Assembly (NCBI GenBank): GCA_029933705.1
Contig: JAOZNQ010000004.1
Coordinates: 1-33,635 of the forward strand
Direction of reading: 5' to 3'
Source: a bacterium
Lineage (GTDB): Bacteria > Hydrothermota > Tepidihabitantia > SM23-42
Length of the DNA: 33,635 bases
Shown here: positions 16,783 through 33,146 of the stretch, piece by piece
Layout of the letters: the number at the start of each line of letters is the position of its first letter
How positions within the stretch are numbered: the stretch's first letter is position 1
Made by a program: the position numbers and the translations under genes
Notes under the pieces: model-generated
Databases searched by the model: none
The model's input: only the letters and a program-made list of their open reading frames with translations
Told to the model about the DNA's origin: nothing

Positions 16783-19215
16783 ATGAAGAAGTTTATTATT
16801 CTGGCGTTATCGCTTTGCTTAATGCCAATCTTTTTGCAGGCAACATCAGAGGATGTTGCAGCAACACCGGCACATGTGTTTAAGGTGCCGAACCCACAAC
16901 CGTCCCATTATGACGGGCCGCGGTCTACGCCGACTCTGGTTGATACAATCGATTTGAGTCCGATAAATCCAACTGGTTATTGCTGGGGTATTACATATGA
17001 CTGGGACCGTGATGTTCTCTGGATAACCCAGTGGAACTCTGCCTATCCCACGGTCTATGCAATTCAGAAGACATCGCCCTGCACTAAGGTCGATTCCTTC
17101 ACCTTAGGCAGTGGCGCCCCTTCATATCACCTTGGTATCGGCTATGCGGGCAATGATATTATGTATATGGCAGGTTTTGACGCCAATGTCTATCAGATTG
17201 ATATGATAACCGGGAATGGAACGGTCTATCGGTCAATGCCCTGGTCCAGTGCTGAAGGTCTGGGATTTAATGCGGTTGATGATGCAATCTATCCGAGCGA
17301 CTGGTCGGCTGATCAGTGTGCCTGGGCAATACCATCTCAGTCTGGTTCCTGGAATACCTGGAGTGTTGCATCAGCTCCCTGTGGAATGTCCGGTGCCTGG
17401 AGCGCATCTACACCTCCGGATATGATTTTCCAGGCTGAGGAAGCGAACCCGGCTCACTTTTATCAGTATAGCGTGAGCGGTGGTGTGCCCAATACCACTC
17501 CAGATTCGGTCTGGGATTGTGACCCTGGACAGACCCAGGGATATGAGGCAGACTGCGCATTTGACGGCCGGTATGTCTATATCCTTGACCAGTCCGGTCC
17601 GGACAAGGTCTGGGTATATGATGTTGGTATTGCAGGGACCAACCACGATGTGGGTACCCAGGCGATTCTTGCACCTGGGGCAACGATTCTGCCCAATACC
17701 ACGATTAATCCCAGTGCCCGATATCGGAATTATGGTGGATATACCGAGACATTTGATGTCTATTTCCTAATCGATTCAGCCGGAGTTAATATCTATAGCC
17801 AGAGCGCAAATATTACTTTGAATTCTGGAACCGATACCACAATCACCTGGCCCAGCTGGACCTCCTGTGGGACAAGCGGTATTACATATGACATCACCGC
17901 CTACACAGTCCTTTCTGGTGACGAGAATCCGGCAAATGACACCCTGACCAGCCAGACCATTGTTACCACTGTTTACTGGGAGATACTCTCTGCCCAATTC
18001 CCATCGCCAAGTTCAGGACACGAGATGGCGACCATACACGATGGTAAATATATGGTCTTTGGCATTAGAACTACCGGTGGTTATTTGAGCCAGACTCAGA
18101 TTTACGACATTGCTGCAGGTTCCTGGAGTGCGGGTCCGGATAATCCATACGGTTGCGGTGCTTATGGTTCTGCCCAGGGTGTGAATGGCAAATACTACAG
18201 AATTGGTGGAACTGATAGCTGGCCAACAGCACTCACAAGGGTTGATATATATGACCCATCTACTAGCCAGTGGTCAAGCGGTGCGGCCTCACCAAGGGCA
18301 TGGATTGACCATGCGACTGGGGTGTATAATGATTCTCTCATCTTCTGTCTTGGTGGTGGTAACTGGGGAACTGGTAATACACCACATACTGATGTATACT
18401 TCTATGATACCTATCTGGATTCCTGGACCCAGGCAACATCAATGCCCGGTGTTGGCAGAGGTTGTCTTGCTGGTGGTGTGATTGATACATTTGCGATTGT
18501 AGCCTGTGGTTATGATGGCACAAGTACCTATCGCAATGACTATATTGTGGGCATCATTGACCAAAGCGATGCCTCCCAGATTGCCTGGGGTTCGCCAACA
18601 AACATTCCAGGAATGGCTGGCCGTTATCGTGTGCCCAGTGGTGTTGACCACGTTAACAAAGAACTCTGGGTAGTGTGTGGACAGATCTCAGGTGGAGCAA
18701 GTGATGAAACCTGGTCATATAACCCATATACCGATACCTGGACCAACTGGAATAAGCCTAAACCACATCCAATGGGTAATGTCTCACCAGTTGTAGTCAC
18801 CACGACCGCTGCGGGTGATTTTGGTGTTTTTGTTGCGAGTGGATATTTTAATGGTTCATACATTACTGACCACGAGGTCTTCCATACCGGTATGACCGGA
18901 ATCGAAGAGAAGCCGGGTGAATTCACCCAGCCGACCGCGTTCGGCTTTGCTCCGGATATGCCGAATCCGGTTAAGGGTTATGCACCGATTACCTATACGA
19001 CCACAAAACCTGGTCCGGTAACACTTAAGGTGTTCGATATCTCTGGTCGACTGGTGAAGACACTGGTCAATCGTGTGGTTGAGCCACAGGGAACAAAGAC
19101 TGTATACTGGACCCTGAAGGATGATTCTCATCGTCCGGTTGCCAATGGTGTCTACTTCTTGAGACTTGAGGTTGGTTCTGAGGTTGCTACGCACAAGCTT
19201 ACGGTTGTGAAGTAA
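16783..19215 (+). CDS. Secreted beta-propeller / CARDB-like Ig / kelch-repeat protein with FlgD-Ig/T9SS-type C-terminal domain
   Basis: Signal peptide; DENPANDTL Ig motif; GG...YD...W kelch repeats; tail PNP...LKVFDISGRLVKTL...NGVYFLRL...HKLTVVK. Confidence 0.85.
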   Translation: MKKFIILALSLCLMPIFLQATSEDVAATPAHVFKVPNPQPSHYDGPRSTPTLVDTIDLSPINPTGYCWGITYDWDRDVLWITQWNSAYPTVYAIQKTSPCTKVDSFTLGSGAPSYHLGIGYAGNDIMYMAGFDANVYQIDMITGNGTVYRSMPWSSAEGLGFNAVDDAIYPSDWSADQCAWAIPSQSGSWNTWSVASAPCGMSGAWSASTPPDMIFQAEEANPAHFYQYSVSGGVPNTTPDSVWDCDPGQTQGYEADCAFDGRYVYILDQSGPDKVWVYDVGIAGTNHDVGTQAILAPGATILPNTTINPSARYRNYGGYTETFDVYFLIDSAGVNIYSQSANITLNSGTDTTITWPSWTSCGTSGITYDITAYTVLSGDENPANDTLTSQTIVTTVYWEILSAQFPSPSSGHEMATIHDGKYMVFGIRTTGGYLSQTQIYDIAAGSWSAGPDNPYGCGAYGSAQGVNGKYYRIGGTDSWPTALTRVDIYDPSTSQWSSGAASPRAWIDHATGVYNDSLIFCLGGGNWGTGNTPHTDVYFYDTYLDSWTQATSMPGVGRGCLAGGVIDTFAIVACGYDGTSTYRNDYIVGIIDQSDASQIAWGSPTNIPGMAGRYRVPSGVDHVNKELWVVCGQISGGASDETWSYNPYTDTWTNWNKPKPHPMGNVSPVVVTTTAAGDFGVFVASGYFNGSYITDHEVFHTGMTGIEEKPGEFTQPTAFGFAPDMPNPVKGYAPITYTTTKPGPVTLKVFDISGRLVKTLVNRVVEPQGTKTVYWTLKDDSHRPVANGVYFLRLEVGSEVATHKLTVVK

Positions 19216-19385: not shown

Positions 19386-20651
19386 ATGATCGACATAAAA
19401 ATTTTAAGGGAAGAACCCGAACTTATACGAAAGGCAATTAGGGATCGGGGAGAGGATATCTCCCTGGATGAGATTCTTGAACTCGATAAAAAGAGGCGTG
19501 CCCTGATAACCGAGTTGCAAAGGTTGAGGCAGAAAAGGAATGAACTTTCAGAAAAGGTTGGCCAGTTGAAACGGGAAGGTAAAGATACGAGCGATTTGAT
19601 GGACCGGGCGCGGGAAATAGGTGCACAGATTAAAGAAAAGGAGAAATTATCTAAAAAGGTCGATGAGCAGTTCAGGAGAAAGATGCAATGGCTTCCCAAT
19701 ATTCCGCATAAATCGGTTCCTGTAGGTCCTGATTCGAGTGCCAACAGATATGTGCGGGGATTAAAAGAGCCTCCCAGATTCGATTTTAATGTTCTACCCC
19801 ACTGGGATATCTGCACTGCCCTGGATATTCTGGATCAGAAGCGGGCTTCAAAGATTGCGGGCTCGCGATTCATCCTTTATAAGGGTGCTGGTGCCAAACT
19901 GGAAAGGGCACTGATAAATTTCTTTCTGGATATCCACACGCAGAGACATAGTTATCTTGAGGTTTTCCCACCGGTCCTGAACCCTCCACAATGCCTTTTC
20001 GGCACCGGTCAGCTTCCCAAACTTGCGCGGGAGATGTATTATTGCCAGGATGACAACCTTTATCTTGCCCCAACCGCTGAAGTCCCTTTGACAAATATCC
20101 ATACCGGAGAGATAATTCCAGAGAAGAAACTTCCAATCTGTTATGTTGCCTATACCCCGTGTTTTCGCCGTGAGGCCGGTTCCTATGGAAAGGTGGTGCG
20201 CGGGATTACCCGGGTTCATCAATTCAATAAGGTTGAGCTGGTCAAGTATACAACCCCGGACCAGGGGTATGAGGAGTTTGAAAAGTTGTTGAGCGATGCA
20301 GAAGAAATCGTGAAGATGCTTGAATTACCTTATCGGATTGTAGTTTTGAGTACCGGTGATATGACATTTGCTGCAGCGAAGACCTATGACATTGAGGTCT
20401 ATTCCCCGGGGATGGATGAGTGGCTTGAGGTATCCTCGGTGAGTATTTATGAACAGTATCAGGCAAGGCGTGCTAATATTCGATACCGGAAATCAACCGG
20501 TGGAGTCGATTTTGTATTCACGATGAACGGTTCGGGACTTGCCACACCGAGGGTATTTATCGCTATTGTGGAGAATTATCAGACCCCGAATGGACGGATA
20601 AGAGTTCCTGAGGTCTTAAAAGGTTATATGAAAATGGACTTTATTGAGTAG
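19386..20651 (+). CDS. serS: Serine--tRNA ligase
   Basis: N-terminal coiled coil, PTAEVP, FRREAG, RVHQFNKVE, NGSGLA. Confidence 0.97.
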   Translation: MIDIKILREEPELIRKAIRDRGEDISLDEILELDKKRRALITELQRLRQKRNELSEKVGQLKREGKDTSDLMDRAREIGAQIKEKEKLSKKVDEQFRRKMQWLPNIPHKSVPVGPDSSANRYVRGLKEPPRFDFNVLPHWDICTALDILDQKRASKIAGSRFILYKGAGAKLERALINFFLDIHTQRHSYLEVFPPVLNPPQCLFGTGQLPKLAREMYYCQDDNLYLAPTAEVPLTNIHTGEIIPEKKLPICYVAYTPCFRREAGSYGKVVRGITRVHQFNKVELVKYTTPDQGYEEFEKLLSDAEEIVKMLELPYRIVVLSTGDMTFAAAKTYDIEVYSPGMDEWLEVSSVSIYEQYQARRANIRYRKSTGGVDFVFTMNGSGLATPRVFIAIVENYQTPNGRIRVPEVLKGYMKMDFIE

Positions 20652-20968
20652 TGCTTGATTACCTGAAGAGCTGGTTTGCCCAGATCCATCACGATTATGG
20701 GGTCAACCCTGTAATCTTTGCAATAATCTATTTTGCCGGGGTGGTTCCATTCTGGCTTTCTATCTATAAGATTATTAGCGGTCTGAAAAATAAAAGGTTT
20801 AATCAGGTTCGAACCTTTGGAATTATTCTCGGCATTGTAATCATCGCGCCATTCAGTTATGTAGCACTTTTCGGCCACAACCTTCCTTTCTGGTTCTGGA
20901 TTGTTGCCTTTCTGGTTATTGGATACAGTGTCTATTCGGTATTGAAGAAAATCAGAACCGCAAAATAA
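20651..20968 (+). CDS. Small 3-TM hypothetical membrane protein
   Basis: GTG start overlapping the serS stop; hydrophobic segments. Confidence 0.65.
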   Translation: MLDYLKSWFAQIHHDYGVNPVIFAIIYFAGVVPFWLSIYKIISGLKNKRFNQVRTFGIILGIVIIAPFSYVALFGHNLPFWFWIVAFLVIGYSVYSVLKKIRTAK

Positions 20969-20976
20969 TCCTGGAA

Positions 20977-22992
20977 TTATTTTAATAATTGTGCAAAATT
21001 GCGGAGAAGAGATTCTTCAATTTGAATTAAATTTATCGAATTGAGGAGTGTAAGAAAACCGTCGATGTCGAGAGCTAGGTAGTGGTCTTCAATCTGATAT
21101 TCTAAGGGAAGGTCATAAAAGTATGCTCCACTACCCAGGGCATCTTCTAAGCGTCGGATATTTTCCTTGATGACCTGACGAATCGTATCAGCACGGGGTG
21201 TCGGGAATTTCGGGTCAACTGGCTGAAATTGATTGAGGATGAGCAATTTTCCTTCGAGGTCGATCGTTTCAATGCCCTCTTTGGTCAGTGCCTCGGCAAG
21301 GATGAATCCATATAATGAACCGAACAGGTGCAGGATATGGGTGTCCTTTCCGTCATAGATAAAAGGGAATTCCAAAGCGGGAATCTCAGGAAAGAGTTTT
21401 TTCTTTAATATCGGGGCCAGGAGGTAGTTATATGTTCTCTCACCCTTTCCTTCAAAGACCTGGGCGAGGGCAGAGGCGTCACGGATGAACCGAGCATAGA
21501 CCTTATGCTCTTTTTTCTGAACCTGAACCGTTTCCCAGCAAGCACCACCCAGGATGAATTTTTTACGCACATAATAGATTCTGCCGATCAGGTTACCCCG
21601 GGCGATATCAAAGACATCATATTCACCGAAACTGATTTCGGCGATATTGGAATGAATCTTTCCCCAGCTGATCTTCTTTTCCAGTTTTTCAGAGTCGTAG
21701 TATATTCCTGGCCGCATCTCTTTTATCAGTCCATCGTCAAGCAGTTTCTTGAATACGGTTTTTATCTGGATTTCGTTATATATCGGTTCGAAGATTCGAT
21801 AGAGGCTTTTTAGTGTGGTGCCGATGCGTCGGCGTTGATATAGATAAGAGAATATCTGTTGGGGAATTATGGATAGGGAGGGGTTGTATCTTCCGGCAAA
21901 GAGTTCTCCTTTCTGGGCACATTCAAAGTAGCATTCAAAGAGGAGTTTTTCCCAGTTATCTTTGTAGATACCCAGCGCAAAGAGTCGATTCTGACGGCGA
22001 TTCCCTCTTCCGATACGCTGGAGCAGTGAAGGGATGTTATAGGGTGGACGATGGAGCACAATGCAGTCAACATCTCCAATATCGATGCCCAGTTCCAAGG
22101 TTGAGGTTGCACACAGGATTGCCCGATCATTCTGTGCCATCTCTTTTTCAACATCCTCACGCCGATTTCGGTTGAGGCTGGCATGATGGACTAGAACCCT
22201 ACCTTCGAATGGCGGTCGGTTGAGACGTCGGGAAAATGATTCGGCATAACTTCGGGCATTGAAAAAAATCAATATCTTTTTTAAATGGCGGTTTCGGGCG
22301 ATTTCGAGTAATTCCTTTTCAAAGCGGTTCTGGGAGATGAGCAGATATTCAATCCTCTTTGGCGCCTTGAGAAAGCAGACTGTAGGGTTTTCAAAATATC
22401 GTTTGCCAATATTGAGGTCATCAATTGTTGCAGAGAGGGCACAGTATTGAATATCTGAGGTTATGCGACGCAGGCGATTCAATAATATTCTTAACTGGTC
22501 ACCCCTTGGTGTATTGTCCAGAAGATGTATTTCATCGAGCACCACCACCTTCAGGTTTTTAAATATTTGAGGATTTCTGGTCAGGAGGGAATCGAATGAC
22601 TCGGGTGTTGTCAAGACTATCTGGGGAAGTTTTTTGGGTGTAATCCGAGGGTGGTCCCCGGTTTTGACACCCATTTTTATATCGAGATAGGTCAGGGGTT
22701 GAATCAGCCTGCGATAGAGGTCGTTCACCAAGGCACGGGTGGGTGAGATGTATAAGATAGAAAGATGCGGAGCGTTGAGCAGACCCTGGTCCATTAACCT
22801 TTCAACCAGAGGGGCGATGACCGCTTCGGTCTTGCCGGTGGCAGCAGGTGATATCACAACAACATTCTTTCCTTCCAGGATATGTGGGATGGTCAGGGTT
22901 TGAATTTCGGTAAAAGAGCCGAAGTGTCCAAAGAATGGATGCCAGGTTTTTCGAAGTTTCTTTTTGATTTCCAGAATCTTTTTTTCTGTCAA
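20977..22992 (-). CDS. Lhr-like SF2 DEAD/DEAH-box helicase (BrxHI/SngC-like)
   Basis: Q motif FTEIQ, SPAATGKT, SPTRAL, DEIH, SAT, HHASL, TSTLELGIDIG, QRIGR; further domains after the helicase core. Confidence 0.9.
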   Translation of the reverse strand: MTEKKILEIKKKLRKTWHPFFGHFGSFTEIQTLTIPHILEGKNVVVISPAATGKTEAVIAPLVERLMDQGLLNAPHLSILYISPTRALVNDLYRRLIQPLTYLDIKMGVKTGDHPRITPKKLPQIVLTTPESFDSLLTRNPQIFKNLKVVVLDEIHLLDNTPRGDQLRILLNRLRRITSDIQYCALSATIDDLNIGKRYFENPTVCFLKAPKRIEYLLISQNRFEKELLEIARNRHLKKILIFFNARSYAESFSRRLNRPPFEGRVLVHHASLNRNRREDVEKEMAQNDRAILCATSTLELGIDIGDVDCIVLHRPPYNIPSLLQRIGRGNRRQNRLFALGIYKDNWEKLLFECYFECAQKGELFAGRYNPSLSIIPQQIFSYLYQRRRIGTTLKSLYRIFEPIYNEIQIKTVFKKLLDDGLIKEMRPGIYYDSEKLEKKISWGKIHSNIAEISFGEYDVFDIARGNLIGRIYYVRKKFILGGACWETVQVQKKEHKVYARFIRDASALAQVFEGKGERTYNYLLAPILKKKLFPEIPALEFPFIYDGKDTHILHLFGSLYGFILAEALTKEGIETIDLEGKLLILNQFQPVDPKFPTPRADTIRQVIKENIRRLEDALGSGAYFYDLPLEYQIEDHYLALDIDGFLTLLNSINLIQIEESLLRNFAQLLK

Positions 22993-22999
22993 TGTTCTG

Positions 23000-24283
23000 C
23001 TATTTGAAAACAGGCGTCAATCGATGCCAGTCGAATGTAGCAATTGTGAATTTAATGAACTCCCTCAGGTCGCCTGAGGCCCGGGGGTAGGCATTATTGA
23101 ATATCCGCTCTTTTCTTTCGGGTTGGAGGTTGAAATCTGGATACGCCTTTTTATAGACTGTGTATAGGTTGTTATAGATTAATTCGAATTCTGATTTACT
23201 GAACTTACGAAGCGTCATTTTTTGTTCTACAATACGGTTAAGGTCATCTAAGTCATGATAACTGTGAATCGGGGTGGTGGCAAGTATCAGCAGGATATTC
23301 GGTTCTCCATAGATGTATGGAGTTGGACGGACACGGTTATGTAGCATTGATCTATCAATTTTTTTTAGCTTTTGATTGTTGAGGGCAGCATAGATCAGTC
23401 CGATGAGAAAGCTCTTTCCCCGAAGATAGAGGGTGTTGTTCCAGATATGGGTGATGGTTTCAACCTCATCAAGGATGATTACCAATCCACCCATATTTTT
23501 GAGTTTAATCAGATAACTCAAACCGGTAAGGATATAGGAATAGAAGTCCGCTGCGGTGGAGAAGTCATACAGGGCTGGAATCGACTGTCCACCACGCACC
23601 CGAAACGGTGCCCGGGTATTTGTTGCATAGTCCTTGGTTGATTCACCTTCAATCCACTGCCAGAATACCTCGGTCTGGTTGTCTCCGTTGTCAAGGCGGC
23701 GCAGGTGTCTGAAGACCGGGCTGAGGAAACAGTGGTCTTTGATCTGTATTGAACTCAATTCTTTGAGCAGGTCTCGGTATGTATAGACACAGCCATCCTT
23801 TATGTAACGCAGATTGTGGACAAGTTCCCGATAGATACGCTTGGGGCGATAAAGGGGTGTCTCCTGCGGATTCAATTCACAATATGCGGTAACATAACCA
23901 TATTTTAAGGCGATATGGTGGATATACTCTAAGAGGTGGGTTTTGCCTGAACCGTAGGAGCCTTCAATCAGATAGACCCCACCGCGCCCCTTTTTCAATG
24001 CCTTCAACCCTTTTTCAATCTGGGCGATTTCATAACCCCGGCAGAATGTGAAAAACTCAACATCCTGGTGTGAGACGATGCCCAACCGAAAGGCCTCGAT
24101 TAACCGCTTTGAGGAGATTTGATTGAGTTTGATATTGGGTATTTCGATGGTCTTGAGCCAGCGGGCAGGCAGCCATAAGGTCAGGCCACAATAGAACTCC
24201 ACCTGCACCTCCTGGCCATCCCATTTTCTATTTTTTATAACCCCTTCACCAAAGATCGGGTGGGCGACAATTTTCGCTTTCAT
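23000..24283 (-). CDS. DUF2791/BrxD-like P-loop ATPase with N-terminal Tudor-like motif
   Basis: IEAFRLGIVS..F, GSYGSGKTH, VIILDEVE; N-terminus VAHPIFGEGVI...VQVEF. Confidence 0.8.
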   Translation of the reverse strand: MKAKIVAHPIFGEGVIKNRKWDGQEVQVEFYCGLTLWLPARWLKTIEIPNIKLNQISSKRLIEAFRLGIVSHQDVEFFTFCRGYEIAQIEKGLKALKKGRGGVYLIEGSYGSGKTHLLEYIHHIALKYGYVTAYCELNPQETPLYRPKRIYRELVHNLRYIKDGCVYTYRDLLKELSSIQIKDHCFLSPVFRHLRRLDNGDNQTEVFWQWIEGESTKDYATNTRAPFRVRGGQSIPALYDFSTAADFYSYILTGLSYLIKLKNMGGLVIILDEVETITHIWNNTLYLRGKSFLIGLIYAALNNQKLKKIDRSMLHNRVRPTPYIYGEPNILLILATTPIHSYHDLDDLNRIVEQKMTLRKFSKSEFELIYNNLYTVYKKAYPDFNLQPERKERIFNNAYPRASGDLREFIKFTIATFDWHRLTPVFK

Positions 24284-24299
24284 ATCGGGTGTTTAATTT

Positions 24300-25550
24300 T
24301 TAATATTCTTCCTTTTCAACCGCTTCATGCTCTTTTTCTGAGAGCATTTTTACTGTGGACCTGAGGATCTCCCTTGCAGTCTCTTCGGTTATCAGGGTTT
24401 GCTCCTGTTTTAACCTCTGATAGGCCTCGATTATGCCGACTACAAATATCCTTCGGTAGCTGATATCGAGTGTCTGTAATTCCAGTGCGGCTTCAACCAG
24501 ATTCTTCATTGATGGAATGAAAAGGTTATCTTTTAATCGACAGTCATAGGCGATTTCAAAGATATTCTTCAATTTTTTGCCGAGTCGCGTCAGGAAATCA
24601 ACAGGTTCAAGTCCCAGCTCTTCAAGGTTGATTTTTACACCCATTGGATTGATTCTGGTAAAGTTTGACCTGAGCCGTTGTTTTAAGGCCTCATAGACAC
24701 CGCCGGTTCCTTCAAGGAGAAGATTCTCATCAGGAATCGCATAGAAGAACATTGCCCCAGGAAGACGCGAATTTCCGCATTCATCAATGAGTTGCCTCAG
24801 ATTATCAAGGGCTCGACGTTTATCCCGGGCTGAAGAGATACTCATCCCCCTTTCTGCCTCATCAAAAAGCAAGATCAATCCAGAATAGCCCATTGCGTTG
24901 ATGAATTGAACCAGACTCCTTAACATCCTGAAGGCATTACTCCTGTCGATTCTTTCTGATATCCGATATCTGAGCCGCAATTCCTTGGGCACATCCTCAC
25001 CCTTAAGCCATTGAATTACTTCATAAAAGCCTTCCTCATCTTCGTTCTTAAGATTCAGTATTGCAGCCTTGATTGCATTGGCGAAACTTGAACTTTCAAG
25101 TCGTGATAGTTTCATCAGGATGCCGGTGCTTTTCTTATCGATGTCTTTCAAAAGAATATCGATGCCGATCTGGTCAGAAAATGGCTGCCCGTTTTCTAAG
25201 GGGGGTGCGATATTGAGCACAATCTTTTTGTAGACCAGTTCCAAGCGGTCAAATGGACATTCGGTTGGGCTCAGTGGTGCATAGCTTGTAACATAGTTGT
25301 TCTTCCAGGCGAGATCCCTGAGCATATAAAGAAAATGGGTTTTACCACCGCCATAATTTCCCGTTATCATCTTAAATGAAGAGAGATTCAATTTAAGTAT
25401 ATCCCTTAGATATTCCTCTTCAATCACTTTCAGGAAAGGTTCCAGGCCGACACTGAAATGTTCAATTCCAAACTGGGGCGGGGTACCAGAACTTCCCAGT
25501 TGATGGATTATCGCCTTGGCGGTTTTTTTATCCAGCTTCACCGTATTCAT
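24300..25550 (-). CDS. DUF2791/BrxD-like P-loop ATPase
   Basis: AIIHQL..SGTPP..G...FSVG, GNYGGGKTHFL, QWLKGE, GYSGLILLFDEAE, GVYEALKQRL. Confidence 0.85.
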   Translation of the reverse strand: MNTVKLDKKTAKAIIHQLGSSGTPPQFGIEHFSVGLEPFLKVIEEEYLRDILKLNLSSFKMITGNYGGGKTHFLYMLRDLAWKNNYVTSYAPLSPTECPFDRLELVYKKIVLNIAPPLENGQPFSDQIGIDILLKDIDKKSTGILMKLSRLESSSFANAIKAAILNLKNEDEEGFYEVIQWLKGEDVPKELRLRYRISERIDRSNAFRMLRSLVQFINAMGYSGLILLFDEAERGMSISSARDKRRALDNLRQLIDECGNSRLPGAMFFYAIPDENLLLEGTGGVYEALKQRLRSNFTRINPMGVKINLEELGLEPVDFLTRLGKKLKNIFEIAYDCRLKDNLFIPSMKNLVEAALELQTLDISYRRIFVVGIIEAYQRLKQEQTLITEETAREILRSTVKMLSEKEHEAVEKEEY

Positions 25551-26383
25551 TTTTCAAATGAGATATATGCATAGTGGGTTCCTTCGCCCTGTTCATTCTC
25601 AGGGACCCATAAAAATTGGAGTTTATTAAGGGTGGCATCGAAGGTCGCTACATACAACCTCATTCCCTGCCGGGTATATCCTCCCCTTTTTAACTGATAG
25701 ATGAGATAGCCCAGTTTCATTCGGGAGAATTCATTGTAGTTTTCTCTTTTCGGCTCAATAAAAAATTTTTTCGGTTGATTCAAGAAGACAAATTGTGTCA
25801 AAACTTCAGTTAAAAGGGCTCGGTCACCAAACGGTCTTTTCTTTAATAGTATCGTCCTTTTGTATGCCTCATAGAGTTTCTGGTATAATTCTCCAAGGTT
25901 GGTGCAACTCTTCCTCAGTTCTTCATCAACCTTTTTTATCGTTTCATAAATTGTGGTGGTCTGGAGTGGTATCCTTGCTCTTATCTTTTCAATCTCTGGA
26001 CCAAAAAAGAGGGTAGCAGAGCCGAATTCGAAGTCCAGTTTCAGGGTAAACAGTCCGATTCGCATTATCGGATACTGACCCCTCAGTGCGACCCCATCTT
26101 TTTCCAGGAGAGTTTTCAGCTCCTGCCCGAACCTGAAACGGAATTCTTCTTTAATCTTCTCTAAATTCTCTTTTTCTGTATTGATGAACCTGTTCAGGGA
26201 GCCTTTCAATCCAGGGTCTTCGATTTTGTCTTTTATCTTATTGATTTCCGTGAGTTTTTTGTCGAGGGGATAGGCATTCTTCAGGGGTTCCTGCTTCAGT
26301 CTATTATAAACCTGGAGAAGCTTTATGAGTTGATTGTTCAATTTTGAAAGTGATTTTAATTGCGACAGTAACTCCTGTTCCAT
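25547..26383 (-). CDS. Hypothetical protein (helical/coiled-coil N-terminus), first gene of the ATPase-helicase operon
   Basis: SD AGGAG; 4-bp ATGA overlap with the next gene; no family recognised. Confidence 0.85.
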   Translation of the reverse strand: MEQELLSQLKSLSKLNNQLIKLLQVYNRLKQEPLKNAYPLDKKLTEINKIKDKIEDPGLKGSLNRFINTEKENLEKIKEEFRFRFGQELKTLLEKDGVALRGQYPIMRIGLFTLKLDFEFGSATLFFGPEIEKIRARIPLQTTTIYETIKKVDEELRKSCTNLGELYQKLYEAYKRTILLKKRPFGDRALLTEVLTQFVFLNQPKKFFIEPKRENYNEFSRMKLGYLIYQLKRGGYTRQGMRLYVATFDATLNKLQFLWVPENEQGEGTHYAYISFEK

Positions 26384-26445
26384 CTATATCTCCTGTTTAA
26401 AGTCTGTTACCGATTGAATAGATTTTCTGCCCATTTCCATTTATA

Positions 26446-26473
26446 ATCATATTCAATAATAGAGGGGTGTCAA
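26446..26473 (-). promoter_or_regulatory. Promoter TTGACA-16-TATGAT of the ATPase-helicase operon
   Basis: Hexamers read directly. Confidence 0.7.
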
Positions 26474-26600
26474 GACTATTTGATTTATGGAAAGAAGGGG
26501 CATCGGTCTGAGATAAAAATCCATAGAATTTCTTTGACTTAATTTGGAAGGGCATCTTATGAGATACAGCGAAGGGGATTTCAGCGGTTTATGGTAATTA

Positions 26601-27956
26601 TCACCTCTTCTGATTCAGGAACCTTTCAATCTCATATTCTTTTTGTTTTATTAACTTCTCATAGAATTTTATTATATTCATACCGGTCTCATCACCGTAG
26701 ATTTCTTTTTCTGCCTTTAATGCCTTCACCGTCTTCTCAAAGTCACTCTTTTCTTTGAGCAGATTCTTTATTCGGGAAGTTACATAAGCGATCCTGCTCC
26801 TCTGCTTCAGCCTCTTTCTTATGATATATTCAAACAGGACTATCCCGGTAGGGATCAGAAGAACCGCAAGGATGGAGATGAGTTTAAGATTTACGGGTAT
26901 ATTTGAAGAGAAGAATACTGCAATAATTGTCGCCACGCCGCCGATCGAGCCGAGTACGGTTAAAAGATATTCAAGCCTTCTTGTCGCAGATGTGAGAAGA
27001 CGGGACTGTCTGTTTTCGATTATTTTACCAATGTCACCGATTATAAATTCTATTGAATTTATATTCTTATCTATCTGCTCTTTGTATCTTTGTAATCGGC
27101 AGGCTTCATTCAATTTTTCCGGAATATCCAGCGCAGAATAGAGTGATTCTACATACCCGAGACTGGCAATGACTTCGAGAAAGTTCACCCGCTTTGTTTC
27201 CAGAATTTTCTCCTCCCATTCCCATTCTATCGCCCTTTCAGTTCCAATCCCGGTTCTCAAACCGGTAAGGTCTTTCTTTAAATCATCCATCCATCCTGCT
27301 GTGAAACCTGCATATTTTTTATAGAAAGAGAGGACGAGGATAAAGAATAGCAGCTTTTTCTCTATTCTTTCTGTGAGCAGATAAAATATCCTGCCCTTGT
27401 GGACAGATATCCTATCCTGGTCTATTTCAATCTCAGAGCAACCTGCAGGCAGTTTTGACTGTCTTGAGATGATGTAGGGGAGGTCAAAACCGACAAAGAG
27501 CTGTTCCTTCCCAAGAAAAAGGAAGTTGATGCCTGAATTCTTTACCACATCTTCTTTCACCCGTGAAAAGGAGATTAAATCGCCGGCCTCCTCCAGGGTT
27601 TTCAGTTTGAATATTTTCAGAAAGAATTCAATGAGGAATCCGTATAATGAAGTTGTTATAACTTTATCACCTATCTGGAATTTAAAATTTTTGAGGAAAA
27701 GCTTTTCGAGCTCCTCATAACTCTTTTCACTCCAGATATTGAGTTCAACAATTATCAAACTAATACCACTGGAACTTATATACGCCTCGATTGTAAAATT
27801 CCTGTCCAGAAATTTGCCCTGGACAAGCTGGACCTTAAGGGTTAGATGGTTGTGAATTATTTCAAAACTCGATTCAGGATAGTCTGGACTGATATACTCC
27901 TTAAATTTTGAAATATCCACAGGCCCACCGCAGAAAAAAGGCACCACTATCTTCAT
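26601..27956 (-). CDS. Hypothetical membrane protein with CorA-like layout (soluble domain, long helices, 2 TMs, C-terminal coiled coil)
   Basis: TMs YLLTVLGSIGGVATIIAVFF and LISILAVLLIPTGIVLFEY; no GMN motif. Confidence 0.7.
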   Translation of the reverse strand: MKIVVPFFCGGPVDISKFKEYISPDYPESSFEIIHNHLTLKVQLVQGKFLDRNFTIEAYISSSGISLIIVELNIWSEKSYEELEKLFLKNFKFQIGDKVITTSLYGFLIEFFLKIFKLKTLEEAGDLISFSRVKEDVVKNSGINFLFLGKEQLFVGFDLPYIISRQSKLPAGCSEIEIDQDRISVHKGRIFYLLTERIEKKLLFFILVLSFYKKYAGFTAGWMDDLKKDLTGLRTGIGTERAIEWEWEEKILETKRVNFLEVIASLGYVESLYSALDIPEKLNEACRLQRYKEQIDKNINSIEFIIGDIGKIIENRQSRLLTSATRRLEYLLTVLGSIGGVATIIAVFFSSNIPVNLKLISILAVLLIPTGIVLFEYIIRKRLKQRSRIAYVTSRIKNLLKEKSDFEKTVKALKAEKEIYGDETGMNIIKFYEKLIKQKEYEIERFLNQKR

Positions 27957-27963
27957 TATAGTT

Positions 27964-27991
27964 ATGATATCTGATAAATGGAGAATGTCAA
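27964..27991 (-). promoter_or_regulatory. Promoter TTGACA-16-TATCAT, ATG 7 nt downstream
   Basis: Hexamers read directly; no SD. Confidence 0.7.
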
Positions 27992-28040
27992 GTAAAACAT
28001 TTGGAGTTAATTCTCTACATTCTACATTATTCAGTGAAAA

Positions 28041-28170
28041 TTAATCAGTTCTCAAATATCCATAGCAGGATGTGATAATGTAAGGGAACGTTTTAACCAT
28101 TCTATAACAGCTAATGAATAATAGAATAATGCCTATTACCAGATAAAAAGCTGAAATGAGTATTTCCTCC
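28041..28170 (-). pseudogene. Possible truncated fourth cassette ORF (ILISAFYLVIGIILLFISCY...)
   Basis: GGAGG just after attC3, then a hydrophobic frame without an ATG. Confidence 0.3.
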
Positions 28171-28196
28171 TTTAATTTTACATTTATCGTTATGTC

Positions 28197-28277
28197 GCCT
28201 GATGCTCCGGGGATATGTGAAGTTTGCGATAGCAAATTTGGGCTGAGCGAAGCGACCCACATACCCGCTGGTTAGGC
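28197..28277 (-). mobile_element. attC site 3 (R' degenerate)
   Basis: R'' GCCTAAC, L boxes GCGGGTATGTG/CACATATCCCCG, R' reads ATCAGGC instead of GTTAGGC; the R'' flank AGCAATGTCGCCTAAC mirrors the cassette start GTTAGGGGACGTTGCT. Confidence 0.8.
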
Positions 28278-28287
28278 GACATTGCTT

Positions 28288-28593
28288 TTAACTTTTCACT
28301 ACCTGTATACCCATTATTTTGACTCCGTCTTCTGTTTTTACCGATAATGTTGCTGGTTCTGTAATGAGACACTGTCCTTCTTCAATATTTACTTTCTGTT
28401 GATTAACCCTTACCTCTGCCGTTCCTTTAATAACATAAAAGATGACGTAAGAAGACATTTTACAATCCGGTATCTCTCCACCAGGTGAGAGTTCGATAAT
28501 CCTTACCTTGAATTCCTTAGCCTCGTAAAAGACATTCTTTCCTCTTTCCTCATAAGGATATACCTTCATTGTTTTAACATCAAATACTTGCAT
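28288..28593 (-). CDS. Cupin-domain protein (cassette 3)
   Basis: ELSPGGEIP, IFYVIKG.AEV.V......EEGQ cupin pattern; metal-binding His residues not evident. Confidence 0.75.
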   Translation of the reverse strand: MQVFDVKTMKVYPYEERGKNVFYEAKEFKVRIIELSPGGEIPDCKMSSYVIFYVIKGTAEVRVNQQKVNIEEGQCLITEPATLSVKTEDGVKIMGIQVVKS

Positions 28594-29146
28594 TATTTAC
28601 CTCCTGATTTTGCTTTATTGCTTTTTTAATCAGCCACTCTATAGATATTCCCATTACTACCACAAAAATAATTGTTAGAACAAGTCTTGTTACCATAAAT
28701 TTGAACCCAAGGAATTGAAGTTCTATCATTTCCTGTGGAAGTTTTATACATGCCCACGCAGAGAGGAAGGCAATGATACATGATATTTTAGCTCCTTTCT
28801 TAAGTAAAGCAGAGGCCATTGGGAAAGCTGCATAAAGGGGACCCGTTGGTAATGCACCCATCAATATACCAAGAAAAACTGCTTTTATTCCAGCAGTTTT
28901 GCCCAGATGCTTTACAATCATTTCTTTTGGCACAAACACACTAAAAAGACCCATCAATATCATTACAGCGGGAAGTATCAAAATCATTTCTATGAAAAAC
29001 TTTCGTGATGCTGTGAATACAGGCGTTCGTTTATCAGGAAAGATCGACAATAAAATTATTGCAATAATTAAGGTAGCTCCAAGAATGATAATATCACGTT
29101 TCACTCCGTGCCTTTGTATTTCTTTTTCTTTAGCATAACCTCTCAT
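28580..29146 (-). CDS. Permease subunit, DUF318/ArsP-like (cassette 3)
   Basis: IVKHLG, GALPTGPLYAAFPMASALLKKGA, ELQFLG..F...RL. Confidence 0.8.
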   Translation of the reverse strand: MRGYAKEKEIQRHGVKRDIIILGATLIIAIILLSIFPDKRTPVFTASRKFFIEMILILPAVMILMGLFSVFVPKEMIVKHLGKTAGIKAVFLGILMGALPTGPLYAAFPMASALLKKGAKISCIIAFLSAWACIKLPQEMIELQFLGFKFMVTRLVLTIIFVVVMGISIEWLIKKAIKQNQEVNNASI

Positions 29147-29631
29147 AGAATCGCCCCCATGAGAATACCGATGATAATAGCAATAAGAAAACTTATTCCG
29201 TTTCTCAGTAAAGCCATTTTCATCCCCAATTCTTTTATTTCTAAGGGCAGTGTAACCATACCTATCATTGTCAGGGTGGTTATAAATACTGCAACTGATG
29301 TAATCGAGGCTCCATTTTTAAGTAAAGACGCCGCTAAGGGAAAGGAAACCAGAGAGGGGATATGTAACAATGCTCCTAATAGTGCCACAATAAGCACTCC
29401 ACCAAAACCTGCCCGTTCGCCAACGATTTTAGAAATTTGACTCTGGGGGACGAACCCCAGAAGCAGACCTATAAGGATTATAATAATAAGAACAGTAGGT
29501 AGAATATGAAAGAATGACTTCAATGCCACGATTAATGCTTGTCTTGCTTTCGCCCGACTTTTGATAAATGCAGATATTAAACACCCGAAAGCAAAAACAT
29601 TTATAAATATGACAGTTGTATTCATAGGCAT
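29143..29631 (-). CDS. Permease subunit, DUF318/ArsP-like (cassette 3)
   Basis: ISKIVG, FPLAASLLKNGAS, TLPLEIKELG..ALLRN. Confidence 0.8.
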   Translation of the reverse strand: MPMNTTVIFINVFAFGCLISAFIKSRAKARQALIVALKSFFHILPTVLIIIILIGLLLGFVPQSQISKIVGERAGFGGVLIVALLGALLHIPSLVSFPLAASLLKNGASITSVAVFITTLTMIGMVTLPLEIKELGMKMALLRNGISFLIAIIIGILMGAIL

Positions 29632-29669
29632 TCCCTTTTTACATTTAATTTTAAATATTTAGCAACGTC

Positions 29670-29758
29670 CCCTAACGTTCTCAGCATTAAAGAAGTTTTT
29701 GCGAAGCAAAAATTTGGGTGAGTGCCGTAAGGCACGAACCTTTTATGCTGTGTTATAT
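29670..29758 (-). mobile_element. attC site 2 (intact)
   Basis: R'' ATATAAC, L'' CAGCATAAAAG / L' CTTTAATGCTG, R' GTTAGGG, internal hairpins; R'' TCATATAAC is complementary to the cassette start GTTATATGA at 31797. Confidence 0.9.
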
Positions 29759-29770
29759 GAAGTGGCGGTT

Positions 29771-30604
29771 TCATTTTGTTACTATCAACACTTTTGTAAC
29801 TGCTGTATATGTTCTCTTGCCAAAAGTAAAAACAATCTCATCATTTTTTGAGACCGTTTCCTCATCAAAGAAATTATCAATCTTTTGAAACACAAGAGCA
29901 AAATCTCTTTTCAATTCCCAACTTCTTTCAGGATTTTCTTTGTCTAACAAGACAACAAATAATCTGTTATCGGCTCCAAATCTCTGAGCGCCTTGATTTT
30001 CATACATCCAAATTGCTAACTCTTTAGGGTTTTCTACTGCATAAATCGGATTGTAATCTCGTGGCAGATAGGTTACCTTTAAATCAAACGGTTGACCATC
30101 AAAGAAGATGTCAATTCCTTTTATATTTTTGATAGTAGGAATTACTTTGGGGTGAGTGCTTATATGTTCTTCAATCAATACTGTCGTCCAATGATTGAAC
30201 CAGGTACATATTACATAATTGCTTACATCGTTATGAAGTTTAGCTTTAACATTATTCAACAAGTCATCATACCTTACAAATCTTCTTACATATTCCGCCT
30301 GTATCTTTTGGTCTAATTGTCCCTGAACCACACCCCACGAAAAAGTTTTAACCTTCATTAATTCCTTTTTTAAATCTTCATCTGAAATAATAGCTCTTCG
30401 TTCTTCGATTCTCTCTCTATATCTTTGTTTAATAAATTCGTTAACAATCTCCTCATTCGGTTGTCTTTCAAAAATCCTCTTAATAATCTCGGTTGCCTTT
30501 CCGCTATTAGAAACACCCAACTCTGACGCCAGTATTTTTAACTGTGGCACTTTAATACAACTGAGTTTCAAATTCAAAACCTCTTTCTGGCTCAATAATG
30601 GCAT
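29771..30604 (-). CDS. Putative type II restriction endonuclease (PD-(D/E)xK) with N-terminal SAP-like motif (cassette 2)
   Basis: GIDIFFDGQPFDLKVT catalytic-like motif; adjacent to the MTase; SD GGAGG. Confidence 0.7.
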   Translation of the reverse strand: MPLLSQKEVLNLKLSCIKVPQLKILASELGVSNSGKATEIIKRIFERQPNEEIVNEFIKQRYRERIEERRAIISDEDLKKELMKVKTFSWGVVQGQLDQKIQAEYVRRFVRYDDLLNNVKAKLHNDVSNYVICTWFNHWTTVLIEEHISTHPKVIPTIKNIKGIDIFFDGQPFDLKVTYLPRDYNPIYAVENPKELAIWMYENQGAQRFGADNRLFVVLLDKENPERSWELKRDFALVFQKIDNFFDEETVSKNDEIVFTFGKRTYTAVTKVLIVTK

Positions 30605-30615
30605 ATTACTTCCTC

Positions 30616-31773
30616 CTATTTTTTCTTAAAAAGCATAATATATTCATGCTTGAAGATATAAAATCCACCAACTAATGCTCTATATCGCCAAAGTTCTTTT
30701 TGGTTTCTTTTCCCCCGTGTTTCTTCAAAGTTCTTTACAATGATACTTTTCAATAAATACCCTCTTTTTAGCACCTCTTGCATACAATAAAAACCTAAAG
30801 GTATCCATTCACCCTTAGAGTATTTGTCCCCAATAACAAGAGCAAAATATCTTCCTTTCTCTAAGAATGGGGTTGCATTATCTACTACCTCGCCAAACAT
30901 CTTTAAAAATTCTTTGGTATTCTTTGCATTTGATAGGTCTTTTTCATCTTTTGAAAACTTAATAATGTCATGATACGGTGGATGCATAATAAGAAGTTGA
31001 ACTTGATTTATCTTATGTTTCTCTAAAACTTCCTTAATGTTAATTGTCCTGCTATCACCAATTATTACCTCTGTGGTTACTTTATATCTATTATATTCTT
31101 TATCAATCAATTCTTTTGCCTTTTGTGCGACTTCTTGATTCAATTCTATCCCGATGCCATTCCTTCCTAACCGCTCGCATTCTATCAAAGTAGTTCCACT
31201 TCCAACAAAGGCATCTAAAACCCAGTCTCCTTTTTTAGTATATCTTAACATCATTTGATGAGGGATTTGAGGGATGAAATTACCCCAATACCAGGCAAGA
31301 TGAGCTCCTGAAGAATCTCTTTTATCTAATATCCAAAGACTATCTGTTGTGATTTCATCATATTCTTTCCATCTTAGAAGATTTATATCATTGATCTTAT
31401 TAGTCTTTACTTTTTGAACACCATTTTTTAGTCGTTTCAAATAGTATTTTGCTCTCTTAAGTGTCCTTGCTTCTAAAATCTGATTTAATTCAGAAATTAA
31501 AACATCTCTACGTAAAGAAATCGTATCCCCGTTTAGATCTATATTTAATAGTCCTTCTCGATCGTTTCTAGGAGAATTTATAATTTCCTTTAGGAATATA
31601 ATTTTATTTTTTAACAAAGATGGATTATTTTGATCGTTTATTCCCTCCAAGAAAGAGACCAATTTCTCTTTATTGAATATAACTGTTCCATAAGTAAAAG
31701 GCGCTGATTCCAAATTCTTAAAAAGGGTTGTTTGCTTATCTTTATTATTCATAGCTTTTATTCCTTTACTCAT
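30616..31773 (-). CDS. Amino (N4-C/N6-A) DNA methyltransferase (cassette 2)
   Basis: GNFIPQIP, motif I DAFVGSGTT, GIELN, motif IV HPPY. Confidence 0.9.
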   Translation of the reverse strand: MSKGIKAMNNKDKQTTLFKNLESAPFTYGTVIFNKEKLVSFLEGINDQNNPSLLKNKIIFLKEIINSPRNDREGLLNIDLNGDTISLRRDVLISELNQILEARTLKRAKYYLKRLKNGVQKVKTNKINDINLLRWKEYDEITTDSLWILDKRDSSGAHLAWYWGNFIPQIPHQMMLRYTKKGDWVLDAFVGSGTTLIECERLGRNGIGIELNQEVAQKAKELIDKEYNRYKVTTEVIIGDSRTINIKEVLEKHKINQVQLLIMHPPYHDIIKFSKDEKDLSNAKNTKEFLKMFGEVVDNATPFLEKGRYFALVIGDKYSKGEWIPLGFYCMQEVLKRGYLLKSIIVKNFEETRGKRNQKELWRYRALVGGFYIFKHEYIMLFKKK

Positions 31774-31790
31774 TTTGAAACCTCCATTTC

Positions 31791-31857
31791 ATATAACCTC
31801 CTGTTAAGTGACCCCGATAGGGGCAAGGTGCAAAGCACCGCAGAGCGCCCGATGCAC
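31791..31857 (-). mobile_element. attC site 1 (left arm/R'' apparently deleted)
   Basis: R' GTTATAT present, with internal hairpins; the flank GTGCATCGGGC mirrors the cassette start GCCCGATGCAC, but the expected ...GCTCAAC R'' is missing. Confidence 0.7.
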
Positions 31858-31864
31858 AACAGCA

Positions 31865-32545
31865 TTAAACCTCATCCTCCTTTTTCGGTTGCTTAAATCG
31901 TTCTAACAGTTGTTTTCTTTCTTCTTCTACATCTTCCTTTGTATACATAATTACTTTTATTTTATGAAACCCAGTAGAAAGATGGTGAATATCTTTTTTG
32001 ATTTCTTCTACATTTTTAGCTATTTTGTATAAAGGTGGTTCACCCAATTGGCTTAAACCAATTAGCTGAGAAAAATCAATCATATATACATCCTTGTATG
32101 TTTTACCTATGCTATTTTGATAAGTAACCCTAATTTCAAAAGGCTTTTTTGTTTTTTCTTCAAAATTCTCAATTGTTAAAAAAAATTGTAGTTTTTGGTT
32201 AGGAGCAAGGTATTTTAGACCATTTTTCATAAAACCCAACTCAGATAGGAATTTACCTTTCATATATTCAAAATCTGGGTTAATCTCAAATTTTATATTG
32301 TAGGCCGGTCCTAACCCTATGTTTTGTATGACCATATCTATAAGATTTATCCATTCTTCTCTTGGTTGAATGGTTACTGAAACTTTCAGTTCTGTTTGAG
32401 CTTCTCTCATTTTTCTAGTTTCTGAAACCAGTTTCCATGTCAAAATGGCATATACTATAGTAGCAATGGCTACAACTGCTGAAAATATTACAGCAAAAGC
32501 TCCGCTATTTTCGTTTAGGAATTCCACTAATCCCATTATTTTCAC
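31865..32545 (-). CDS. Single-TM hypothetical protein (cassette 1)
   Basis: N-terminal TM AFAVIFSAVVAIATIVYAILTW, then QNIGLGPAYNI beta-rich domain; AT-rich. Confidence 0.8.
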   Translation of the reverse strand: MKIMGLVEFLNENSGAFAVIFSAVVAIATIVYAILTWKLVSETRKMREAQTELKVSVTIQPREEWINLIDMVIQNIGLGPAYNIKFEINPDFEYMKGKFLSELGFMKNGLKYLAPNQKLQFFLTIENFEEKTKKPFEIRVTYQNSIGKTYKDVYMIDFSQLIGLSQLGEPPLYKIAKNVEEIKKDIHHLSTGFHKIKVIMYTKEDVEEERKQLLERFKQPKKEDEV

Positions 32546-32580
32546 CCTCTATTCCTAATCTTGGTGCATCGGGCATTTCC

Positions 32581-32657
32581 GCTCAACTTGGTTATATCCG
32601 CACTTTTGGTGCTGATATGATTCCAATTTTGGAGGATATCCGCACTTAGTTCGGATA
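32581..32657 (-). mobile_element. Integron attI site
   Basis: GGATATAACCAA-GTTGAGC core; 12-bp direct repeat AAGTGCGGATAT at 32594-32605 and 32636-32647; lies between the integrase tail and the first cassette. Confidence 0.7.
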
Positions 32658-32690
32658 TATTACCTTTCTCTGAATGTTGCCATAATGTTT

Positions 32691-32792: not shown

Positions 32793-32829
32793 CACATAAT
32801 AATATATAGCAAAGAAAAGCAAAAAGTCA

Positions 32830-32905: not shown

Positions 32906-32916
32906 TTTTTTTTGAG

Positions 32917-33118: not shown

Positions 33119-33146
33119 ATTATATAGATTTTCGTGCAGTTGTCAA
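33119..33146 (-). promoter_or_regulatory. Promoter TTGACA-16-TATAAT for tRNA-Asn
   Basis: Perfect hexamers. Confidence 0.75.

Follow-up and report, generated by a model that had tools for sequence, protein, structure and literature searches.

Introduction

Does an operon that encodes relatives of anti-phage proteins have to be a defence island, or can such a machine belong to the resident equipment of a lineage? The question is raised by four genes, called A, B, C and D here, in a 33,635-nucleotide stretch of contig JAOZNQ010000004.1 (assembly GCA_029933705.1) from a WOR-3 bacterium, referred to below as the window. A preliminary description had taken the four genes for a stand-alone anti-phage or DNA-surveillance system. 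Part of this stands: there is an unnamed, conserved four-gene cassette, and its short form lies beside defence or mobile genes at 11 of 23 loci. The window copy, however, is resident, diverges at a rate like that of seryl-tRNA synthetase (SerS) and has housekeeping flanks. With slightly better than even confidence, we read the four genes as the WOR-3 long form of a widespread unnamed A-B-C-D cassette, which would have a resident role in genome maintenance or DNA surveillance and be tethered through a Tudor domain. The window copy is probably domesticated.

The genes and the parts discussed below are the following (ORF, open reading frame; aa, amino acids; SF2, helicase superfamily 2).

25547..26383, reverse strand: gene A, 278-aa ORF
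24300..25550, reverse strand: gene B, 416-aa ORF, BrxD/SngB-like AAA+ ATPase
23000..24283, reverse strand: gene C, 427-aa ORF, second, divergent BrxD/SngB-like ATPase
20977..22992, reverse strand: gene D, 671-aa ORF with a TTG start, Lhr/Ski2-like SF2 helicase of the SngC/BrxHI kind
24134..24283, reverse strand: putative N-terminal Tudor domain of C, UvrD/PcrA type, approximately residues 1-50
20980..21474, reverse strand: C-terminal extension of D, residues 507-671, specific to the WOR-3 long form
26446..26473, reverse strand: sigma-70-like promoter candidate, TTGACA-16-TATGAT, upstream of A

Results

The WOR-3 copies are inherited with the genome

In WOR-3, the copies of the cassette form one clade, are inherited with the genome, diverge at a SerS-like rate and lie among housekeeping genes. 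Presence was scored in a phylum sample of 201 WOR-3 genomes (A at E<=0.001, B at E<=1e-10, D at E<=1e-50), for which the family codes, f1 and so on, are working labels. Matches to A, B and D were found in 71, 70 and 68 genomes, respectively, in the same families and in an all-or-none manner: A was present in f1 (10/10), f2 (6/6), f4 (18/19), f5 (4/4), f8 (8/8), f23 (8/8) and f29 (5/5), and was not found in f7 (0/7), f13 (0/6), f16 (0/8), f17 (0/14) or f19 (0/20). Among 41 relatives, 35 have a homologue of A, as do 27 of the 28 that are of high quality. Across the large WOR-3 clade the cassette is single-copy and family-coherent; in genome G011, a second contig, G011:C72, holds partial genes resembling B (46%) and D (42%) in addition to the core copy.

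SerS, present in 195 of the 201 genomes, served as a yardstick, the identities of both B and SerS being taken against the window copy. The percentages for B vs SerS were 81 vs 80 within the genus, 66-71 vs 67-72 in f1, 61-65 vs 69-72 in f2, 56-61 vs 46-47 in f4, 58-59 vs 51-52 in f5, 55-58 vs 49-53 in f8, 48-50 vs 47-51 in f23 and 47-50 vs 56-58 in f29. By this yardstick, the divergence of B is about as slow as that of an aminoacyl-tRNA synthetase. A restriction-like neighbour of 277 aa, used as a control, was found in 13 of the 201 genomes and in none of the ten of f1, and its identity is 70-83% in families with a SerS identity of only ~47-52%. This pattern is patchy and that of a transferred gene, as expected of a defence gene, and the four-gene module shows the opposite.

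Twenty WOR-3 loci were fetched; A-B-C are contiguous in 17, and D follows directly in 11. At one locus the contig ends after C. Four loci without D after C have a D orthologue elsewhere in the genome, and three loci with A alone have B and D orthologues elsewhere (unlinked B in G100, G099 and G048; unlinked D in G029, G090, G097 and G190), and the core clade thereby keeps all four genes even when they are unlinked. At a further locus (L019 9654-10541, genome G028), an IS200-like Y1 transposase gene lies between C and D, and all four genes are intact.

Conservation of the flanking genes does not extend past the genus or family level. When four ORFs per side within 5 kb were examined, a protocol applied to core and short-form loci alike, none of the 94 ORFs at 15 WOR-3 core loci belonged to a defence or mobile family. 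The neighbours at core loci include SerS, sigma-70, DnaG, a MutS-like protein, MnmE-YidC-RnpA, GltX, FtsK and reverse gyrase. In the upstream flanks of L018 and L019, both from f3 genomes, the cassette adjoins an rnpA-yidC-mnmE cluster, which in many bacteria lies near the replication origin. The reverse gyrase gene stands two genes from the cassette of an f5 genome, with a SAICAR synthetase gene between (L024 2067-5414, G090), a possible sign that the phylum has a thermophilic member.

Phylogenetic analysis of 61 B proteins, with 13 C paralogues as the root (quick IQ-TREE, LG+G4), placed all 17 WOR-3 core sequences in one clade (Shimodaira-Hasegawa-like approximate likelihood-ratio support, SH-aLRT, 100; stem 0.59), nested within the diversity of the short form. 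Every family with at least two rows, namely f1, f3, f4 and f29, was monophyletic, and f1 grouped with f2. The sequence from G087 grouped with the short forms.

These results bear directly on the main alternative, less likely in our view, in which the module is still anti-phage or anti-plasmid: a four-component variant of the Shango type fixed in the lineage, with A taking the sensor or adaptor part of SngA, the TerB protein, and with D controlled on invading DNA by the ATPases. A family-coherent, single-copy and vertically structured distribution speaks against it, as do the SerS-like divergence, the housekeeping flanks and the retention of all four genes when unlinked; the true defence gene next door shows the opposite pattern.

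The short form often lies in defence or mobile contexts

In G087 (f27, where one of six genomes has the module), a short variant of the cassette is followed by an 819-aa DNA methylase (L030 5953-13480). Relatives of its A protein, at 37-56% identity, are named from Latescibacteria, Thermoanaerobacterium, Brocadia, a deltaproteobacterium, Dehalococcoidia and Clostridia, and further from Chloroflexi, Poribacteria and a Methanomethylicia archaeon. A metagenome scan with 22 short-form A-like proteins led to 80 loci, which carry no taxonomy. B is next to A in 53 of the 58 loci with at least 1.3 kb downstream of A, and the order A-B-C-D is found in 41 of the 42 with at least 4.3 kb, near-duplicate contigs being counted too. 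Conservation of the gene order, which the preliminary description had named as a check on its proposal, is thus borne out by these loci and by the 17 of 20 WOR-3 loci with A-B-C.

The same description had looked to enrichment in defence islands, and here the two forms part. Of 23 short-form loci with 114 flanking ORFs, 11 have neighbours of clear defence or mobile families, two are ambiguous and 10 have ordinary neighbours, against 0 of 94 ORFs for the WOR-3 core form. The neighbours of the short form comprise HepT; an SNF2-NOV_C protein with PIN, an excisionase-like helix-turn-helix protein and RepA; HNH-SRA with Mrr_N; DUF499; TnsA; a phage portal in two near-duplicate loci, one of which also has TnpB; a type IIG methylase with a superfamily 1 (SF1) helicase; Cas3 with Csd1; an Eco57I methylase with SNF2-PLD; and an MNT-type nucleotidyltransferase with JAB. 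A tblastn search with short-form A (P0313) gave no match in PLSDB plasmids or INPHARED phages, both of which are biased to cultured hosts.

The short A-B-C-D form does look mobile, and, taken as a whole, the cassette family makes a good candidate for a defence system, of the Shango/BrxD-BrxHI kind, that has yet to be described. Patchiness, transfer and defence or mobile neighbours, the marks of a mobile defence gene, are seen with the short form and with the control gene; the window copy does not show them. The defence or mobile neighbours at those 11 of 23 loci, and the naming of short-form A homologues from many phyla and one archaeon, are what an anti-phage role fixed in the lineage would draw on, together with the restriction-modification (R-M) pair ~3.4 kb upstream of the window operon, the experimental demonstration of Shango as a defence system (10.1101/2022.11.11.516204) and the best model matches of B, C and D, which are BrxD, SngB, SngC and BrxHI. 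The lack of tblastn matches to short-form A in the plasmid and phage collections counts on the other side.

Two BrxD-like ATPases and an Lhr-like helicase

Both B and C match PF10923 (BrxC_BrxD), B at 9.4e-49 and C at 2.7e-24, the match of C spanning residues 57-159 only. With the PADLOC models, the values were 8.4e-40 (B) and 3.3e-21 (C) for BrxD, and 5.2e-27 and 1e-12 for SngB. The two proteins are 28% identical to each other over 187 residues only. The Walker A and B motifs, read from the translations as GNYGGGKTHF and LLFDEAE in B and as GSYGSGKTHL and ILDEVE in C, are invariant in 17-row alignments of each protein, and the claim of two divergent ATPases with intact motifs holds. B is the most conserved member of the cassette, with a mean column identity of 63% in its 17-row alignment. 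The C-terminal tail of all 17 aligned B proteins is acidic-aromatic (EEF, EEY or EEL; 24303-24320 in the window) with an invariant penultimate glutamate, and looks like a docking peptide. Against PDB sequences, the profile of B found nothing meaningful, and that of C weakly matched DnaA and Cdc6 AAA+ chains (E 0.01-0.2).

D matches the Pfam families DEAD (3e-34) and Helicase_C (7.8e-17), and motifs I (AATGKTE), II (DEIH), III (SAT) and VI (QRIGRGNRR) can be read in its translation, in agreement with the complete helicase motifs described earlier. Its PADLOC matches are SngC (5e-62, residues 18-506 on model positions 23-553 of 720) and BrxHI (1e-60), and its best solved relatives are the mycobacterial Lhr entries 5v9x_A (1.5e-26) and 7lhl_A. 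D stays below the cut-offs of the Lhr-type NCBIfam models, with 185.7 vs 850 bits for TIGR04121 and 163 vs 849 for PRK13767. The length of D is bimodal, with 43 short (483-542 aa) and 11 long (669-707 aa) proteins; all long ones come from WOR-3 core loci, and short ones from G087 and from every metagenome locus with a full-length D. The C-terminal extension (507-671) had no Pfam match, and its domain profile no PDB sequence match.

Partial matches to BREX and Shango were all that the preliminary description had expected, and this is what was obtained: PADLOC SngB/SngC and BrxD/BrxHI matched, and NCBIfam BrxD (NF033438) gave 133.9 bits for B and 74.8 for C, under its cut-off of 350. It had also noted the absence of pglW/X/Y/Z and TerB. 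A scan of 27 window ORFs detected no family of PglW/X/Y/Z or TerB, 208 flank ORFs of 38 related loci likewise yielded no TerB or Pgl family, and no full match to a named system emerged. The PADLOC matches would also fit an explanation in which the cassette belongs to, or is left over from, a named system (Shango, or type 2 BREX with its accessory pair) and further genes of that system had been missed; given this absence of TerB and Pgl families, the constancy of two ATPases together with A, and the NCBIfam scores just given, we regard such an explanation as very improbable.

A putative UvrD-like domain at the N-terminus of C

The C protein has about 50 extra residues at its N-terminus, which L030, the one short-form C in the alignment, lacks; most short-form C proteins are shorter than the long-form ones. 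When a profile of this domain was compared with the PDB, the best four matches were UvrD C-terminal domains (7egt_B, 0.0018; 7egs_B, 0.016; 6yi2_A, 0.017; 4c2t_A, 0.18). A model of the domain (predicted local distance difference test, pLDDT, 79.5) also had 7egt_B, the UvrD C-terminal domain with UvrB, as its best Foldseek match (root-mean-square deviation, rmsd, 1.5 A; 30% identity), and the best four further include 6yi2 and 7egs_B, the UvrD C-terminal domain with the RNA polymerase lobe; the fold matches to UvrD range over rmsd 1.5-2.8 A and 30-33% identity. The Tudor domain of PcrA/UvrD is reported to bind RNA polymerase beta and UvrB via a shared hairpin motif (PMC8318588). Going by profile and model, a Tudor domain of the UvrD/PcrA type appears to have been gained on C in the WOR-3 clade, like the longer D.

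In UvrD/PcrA-like genes themselves, PF21196 was detected in 47 of the 201 genomes, in 1 of 71 with A vs 46 of 130 without A. The best UvrD-like frames measure 629 aa in G000 and 647 aa in G006, vs 693 and 727 aa in two genomes lacking the module. The scarcity of PF21196 on UvrD/PcrA among genomes with the module is suggestive only.

Protein A and its predicted partner

The preliminary description had not recognised a family for the 278-aa protein. Searches of Pfam, PADLOC and NCBIfam likewise gave no match at E<=0.1 apart from one chance-level row, and a Pfam scan of residues 95-278 alone gave none. A profile of A recruited 986 representative proteins at E<=0.001 among 1.84 billion, and a search of the ESM Atlas returned only unnamed clusters, labelled WOR-3, Chloroflexota and Acidobacteriota. 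By these searches A would be a new protein family, not covered by the 2023 PADLOC models, Pfam or NCBIfam.

In the predicted structure of A (pLDDT 93; predicted template modelling score, pTM, 0.81), a three-helix bundle (1-94) is followed by a sheet-plus-helix domain (~95-160) and a C-terminal winged-helix-like domain (160-278). Residues 160-278 find their best structural matches in Orc1/Cdc6 winged helices: 8s0e_A (Z 8.0, rmsd 2.6 A, 77 residues), 7jpp_A (Z 7.5), 4xgc_A (Z 7.2) and the archaeal Cdc6 1fnn_A (Z 6.3), the Orc1 matches overall covering Z 7.0-8.0, rmsd 2.6-3.7 A and 77-83 residues. These rows came only from a second search, a wide structure search with A having been filled by helical bundles on residues 1-83. 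Foldseek of A against the PDB had no match at E<=0.001, and no TerB was among the matches listed in the fold searches.

Complex modelling, which the preliminary description had suggested, came out positive for the A-B pair, with a median score of 0.63 vs 0.00 for the best of three controls. A score of 0.63 is reached by 58 of 80 solved complexes and 2 of 110 mismatched pairs, a calibration that holds only roughly because our own alignments were used. At least 69% of the contacts agreed between runs, and the partner pLDDT was at least 85. The predicted interface contains the most conserved residues of both proteins, the invariant or near-invariant ones being G102, Q103, P105, P129, V245, A246, F248 and T251 in A, and Y66, L248, D274, Y286-A288, Q291 and D362 in B. 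A is thus predicted to bind B, which the model supports without showing it.

The winged-helix matches of A residues 160-278 also bring to mind an ORC/Cdc6-like initiator and helicase-loader set for replication, either of the chromosome or, in the short form, of an integrated element, with A giving the winged helix and B and C loading D at a specific site. The placement of BrxD in the ORC/Cdc6 clade of AAA+ proteins (PMC12839542) would agree with this, as would the weak matches of the C profile to DnaA and Cdc6 chains, the position of the cassette next to rnpA-yidC-mnmE in two f3 genomes and a RepA-like gene near one short-form locus. We nevertheless consider it unlikely in a high degree: D is a repair-style helicase of the Lhr/Ski2 type and not a ring replicative helicase, about half of the families of the phylum lack the module, the structural and sequence matches are weak, and origin-like repeats were not seen, no search having been aimed at them.

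Surroundings of the operon in the window

The ORF list reproduced all coordinates of the four co-oriented, tightly packed genes as first described, with a 4-bp overlap of A and B and gaps of 16 bp (B-C) and 7 bp (C-D). The single promoter that had been assigned to them is tenable in part: TTGACA-16-TATGAT agrees with 11 of 12 consensus positions, lies ~60 nt upstream of A and is the best site in 20600-26700, while over the whole scan the number of sites did not exceed that in shuffles (13 vs a mean of 10.8), and we take the site as a consensus match only. The end of the operon is 8 nt from a convergent serS-orf105 pair. Housekeeping genes of the window are tpiA, pgk, gap, secG, rplU, those for a ChlI-like ATPase, LptD and a SurA-like protein, and serS. 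The window also encodes an 810-aa Kelch-repeat protein with a type IX secretion sorting tail (16783-19215) and a 594-aa AAA_16 plus TPR (STAND-like) protein (9703-11487).

Going upstream from the operon, one meets a 451-aa ORF, then a cupin, then a pair of half-size ArsP-like genes, and finally a 277-aa ORF with an N6_N4 methylase. The 451-aa ORF (26601-27956), which has no Pfam family, was ruled out as a member of the cassette because it had no tblastn match in any of 20 related loci. The half-size genes, of 188 and 162 aa (28580-29631), overlap by 4 bp, and of the 294 positions of the ArsP_1 permease profile both match the same N-terminal half (13-146 and 5-133); they are two half-size paralogues, not a single frameshifted gene. 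Inverted repeats of 22 nt (29752-29773 and 31776-31797, 91% complementary) enclose the 277-aa ORF and the N6_N4 DNA methylase (29771-31773), and the pair looks like a transferred R-M cassette. The operon has a GC content of 0.41-0.46, like the rest of the window, which falls to 0.33-0.37 from 28 kb onward, in the region of the R-M pair. An adjoining integron bearing R-M genes had been proposed; the methylase (N6_N4_Mtase, 4 kb from the cassette) with its 277-aa partner is indeed present, but a family scan found no integrase among the ORFs of 26.6-32.5 kb, and within 26300-33635 there was no attC-like repeat array and no repeat family with more than two copies.

Discussion

How might the four proteins act together in a resident module? 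In the reported work on BrxD, this protein is an ATPase of the ORC/Cdc6 clade of AAA+ proteins without DNA-binding domains, which forms a tight pair with BrxHI and is proposed to load or activate it (PMC12839542). We propose that A docks on B and would thereby bring in the winged-helix DNA-binding part that BrxD-type ATPases lack, as the structure models suggest. B and C might then combine into a mixed assembly, driven by ATP, by which helicase D would be loaded onto DNA or activated there. The Tudor domain of C would, in WOR-3, tether this machine to RNA polymerase or UvrB, and the tethered machine may serve as a resident genome-maintenance or DNA-surveillance module acting on stalled transcription, R-loops or damage, and not as a mobile defence island.

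A number of points weigh against this reading and need to be considered together. The link to the Tudor domain is modest, with Foldseek E values of 0.014-0.02 and a best profile match at E=0.0018, and neither PF21196, tried on C of G000, G006 and G069, nor a general Pfam scan of the C N-terminus gave a match. The partner motif in its strict form, [VIL]DxxTGE[VIL][VILT] (PMC8318588), has a single match in G000, VDELTGEIT, in a 1076-aa open frame (G000:C70:4291-7518) not assigned to RpoB or UvrB, and one loose match lies in a 698-aa frame on contig C99. The motif search thus gives no support to a contact of the Bacillus PcrA type. Strict complementarity of the module and the UvrD Tudor domain was rejected because f7, f13, f14 and f19 have neither the module nor a detectable UvrD Tudor domain, and displacement of Mfd was rejected as well, with Mfd present in all five genomes tested. 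The winged-helix Z scores of A (6.3-8.0) are in the middling range. The distribution counts overstate the support, because related genomes are not independent. The root of the B tree rests on a distant paralogue, and because long-branch joins were flagged at this root, the direction from short to long form is likely and not shown. Finally, every characterised relative of these ATPases and of D is part of an anti-phage system and the short form lies in defence contexts, and for these reasons a fixed defence role stays a candidate.

One may go a step further and consider the origin of the resident module. We offer tentatively, as a possibility rather than as our expectation, that a mobile helicase-loader cassette of the defence type was captured once by an ancestor of the large WOR-3 clade and became a core machine of genome maintenance. 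The captured machine would have been a split ORC/Cdc6-like heteromer with the winged helix of A in trans and an Lhr-like helicase; it would later have gained the Tudor domain of UvrD/PcrA and taken over the role, coupled to RNA polymerase or UvrB, that PcrA/UvrD with a Tudor domain has elsewhere. If this is true, it is a traceable case of an immune module turned housekeeping.

Irrespective of the details of the model, the cassette with its new family A is a concrete candidate defence system, and it gives a testable model for BrxD/SngB-type ATPases beside Lhr-like helicases, a question that is open for both Shango and type 2 BREX. The WOR-3 clade allows the same machine to be compared in a mobile and in a resident state, with dated domain gains (the Tudor domain and the extended helicase), which bears on the exchange of parts between immune modules and DNA-repair machinery. 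For genome scans there is a caution: homology to defence proteins alone is insufficient to call a defence island.

Comparison with known systems

Judged against the libraries searched, the cassette is unnamed and appears related to Shango and to the BrxD-BrxHI pair, with a full match to neither. In the literature, we found no description of a cassette with two BrxD-like ATPases, a helicase and A, although supplementary tables of PMC12839542 and of the Shango papers may list such contexts.

Shango, reported as an experimentally shown TerB-ATPase-helicase defence system (10.1101/2022.11.11.516204), shares with the cassette an operon that encodes a BrxD-like ATPase, an adjacent Lhr-like SF2 helicase and one non-enzymatic protein besides. 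By model match, D is a helicase of the SngC type (5e-62), and SngB is matched by B (5e-27) and by C (1e-12). The cassette differs in having two paralogous ATPases, in every locus with room for them, in place of one, and both match BrxD better than SngB. Its A protein has no TerB match and a predicted fold other than that of SngA. The long form, in addition, has the putative Tudor domain, and the window copy is vertically inherited.

With type 2 BREX (Pgl) the likeness lies in the best matches of B and C to BrxD (8.4e-40, 3.3e-21) and in the match of D to BrxHI (1e-60). Unlike that system, the loci yielded no PglW, PglX, PglY/BrxC or PglZ among the window ORFs or the 208 flank ORFs of the 38 related loci, B and C fall under the NCBIfam BrxD equivalog cut-off, and there is an extra ATPase as well as A. 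The Lhr-core repair helicases include the nearest solved relatives of D, mycobacterial Lhr (5v9x_A, 7lhl_A), and motifs I, II, III and VI are readable in D; yet D is far under the equivalog cut-offs and always travels with A, B and C.

The ORC/Cdc6 initiators resemble the cassette in that its ATPases are of BrxD's AAA+ clade (PMC12839542) and in the winged-helix-like domain of A with its predicted docking on B. In the cassette, however, the winged helix would act in trans on a separate protein, the helicase is of SF2 and not MCM or DnaB, and the structural likeness is weak. As to the Tudor domain of PcrA/UvrD, its putative counterpart in C is N-terminal and part of an AAA+ ATPase instead of an SF1 helicase, and PF21196 is blind to it. 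The N-terminal 50 residues of C match UvrD C-terminal domains both by profile (E=0.0018) and by fold.

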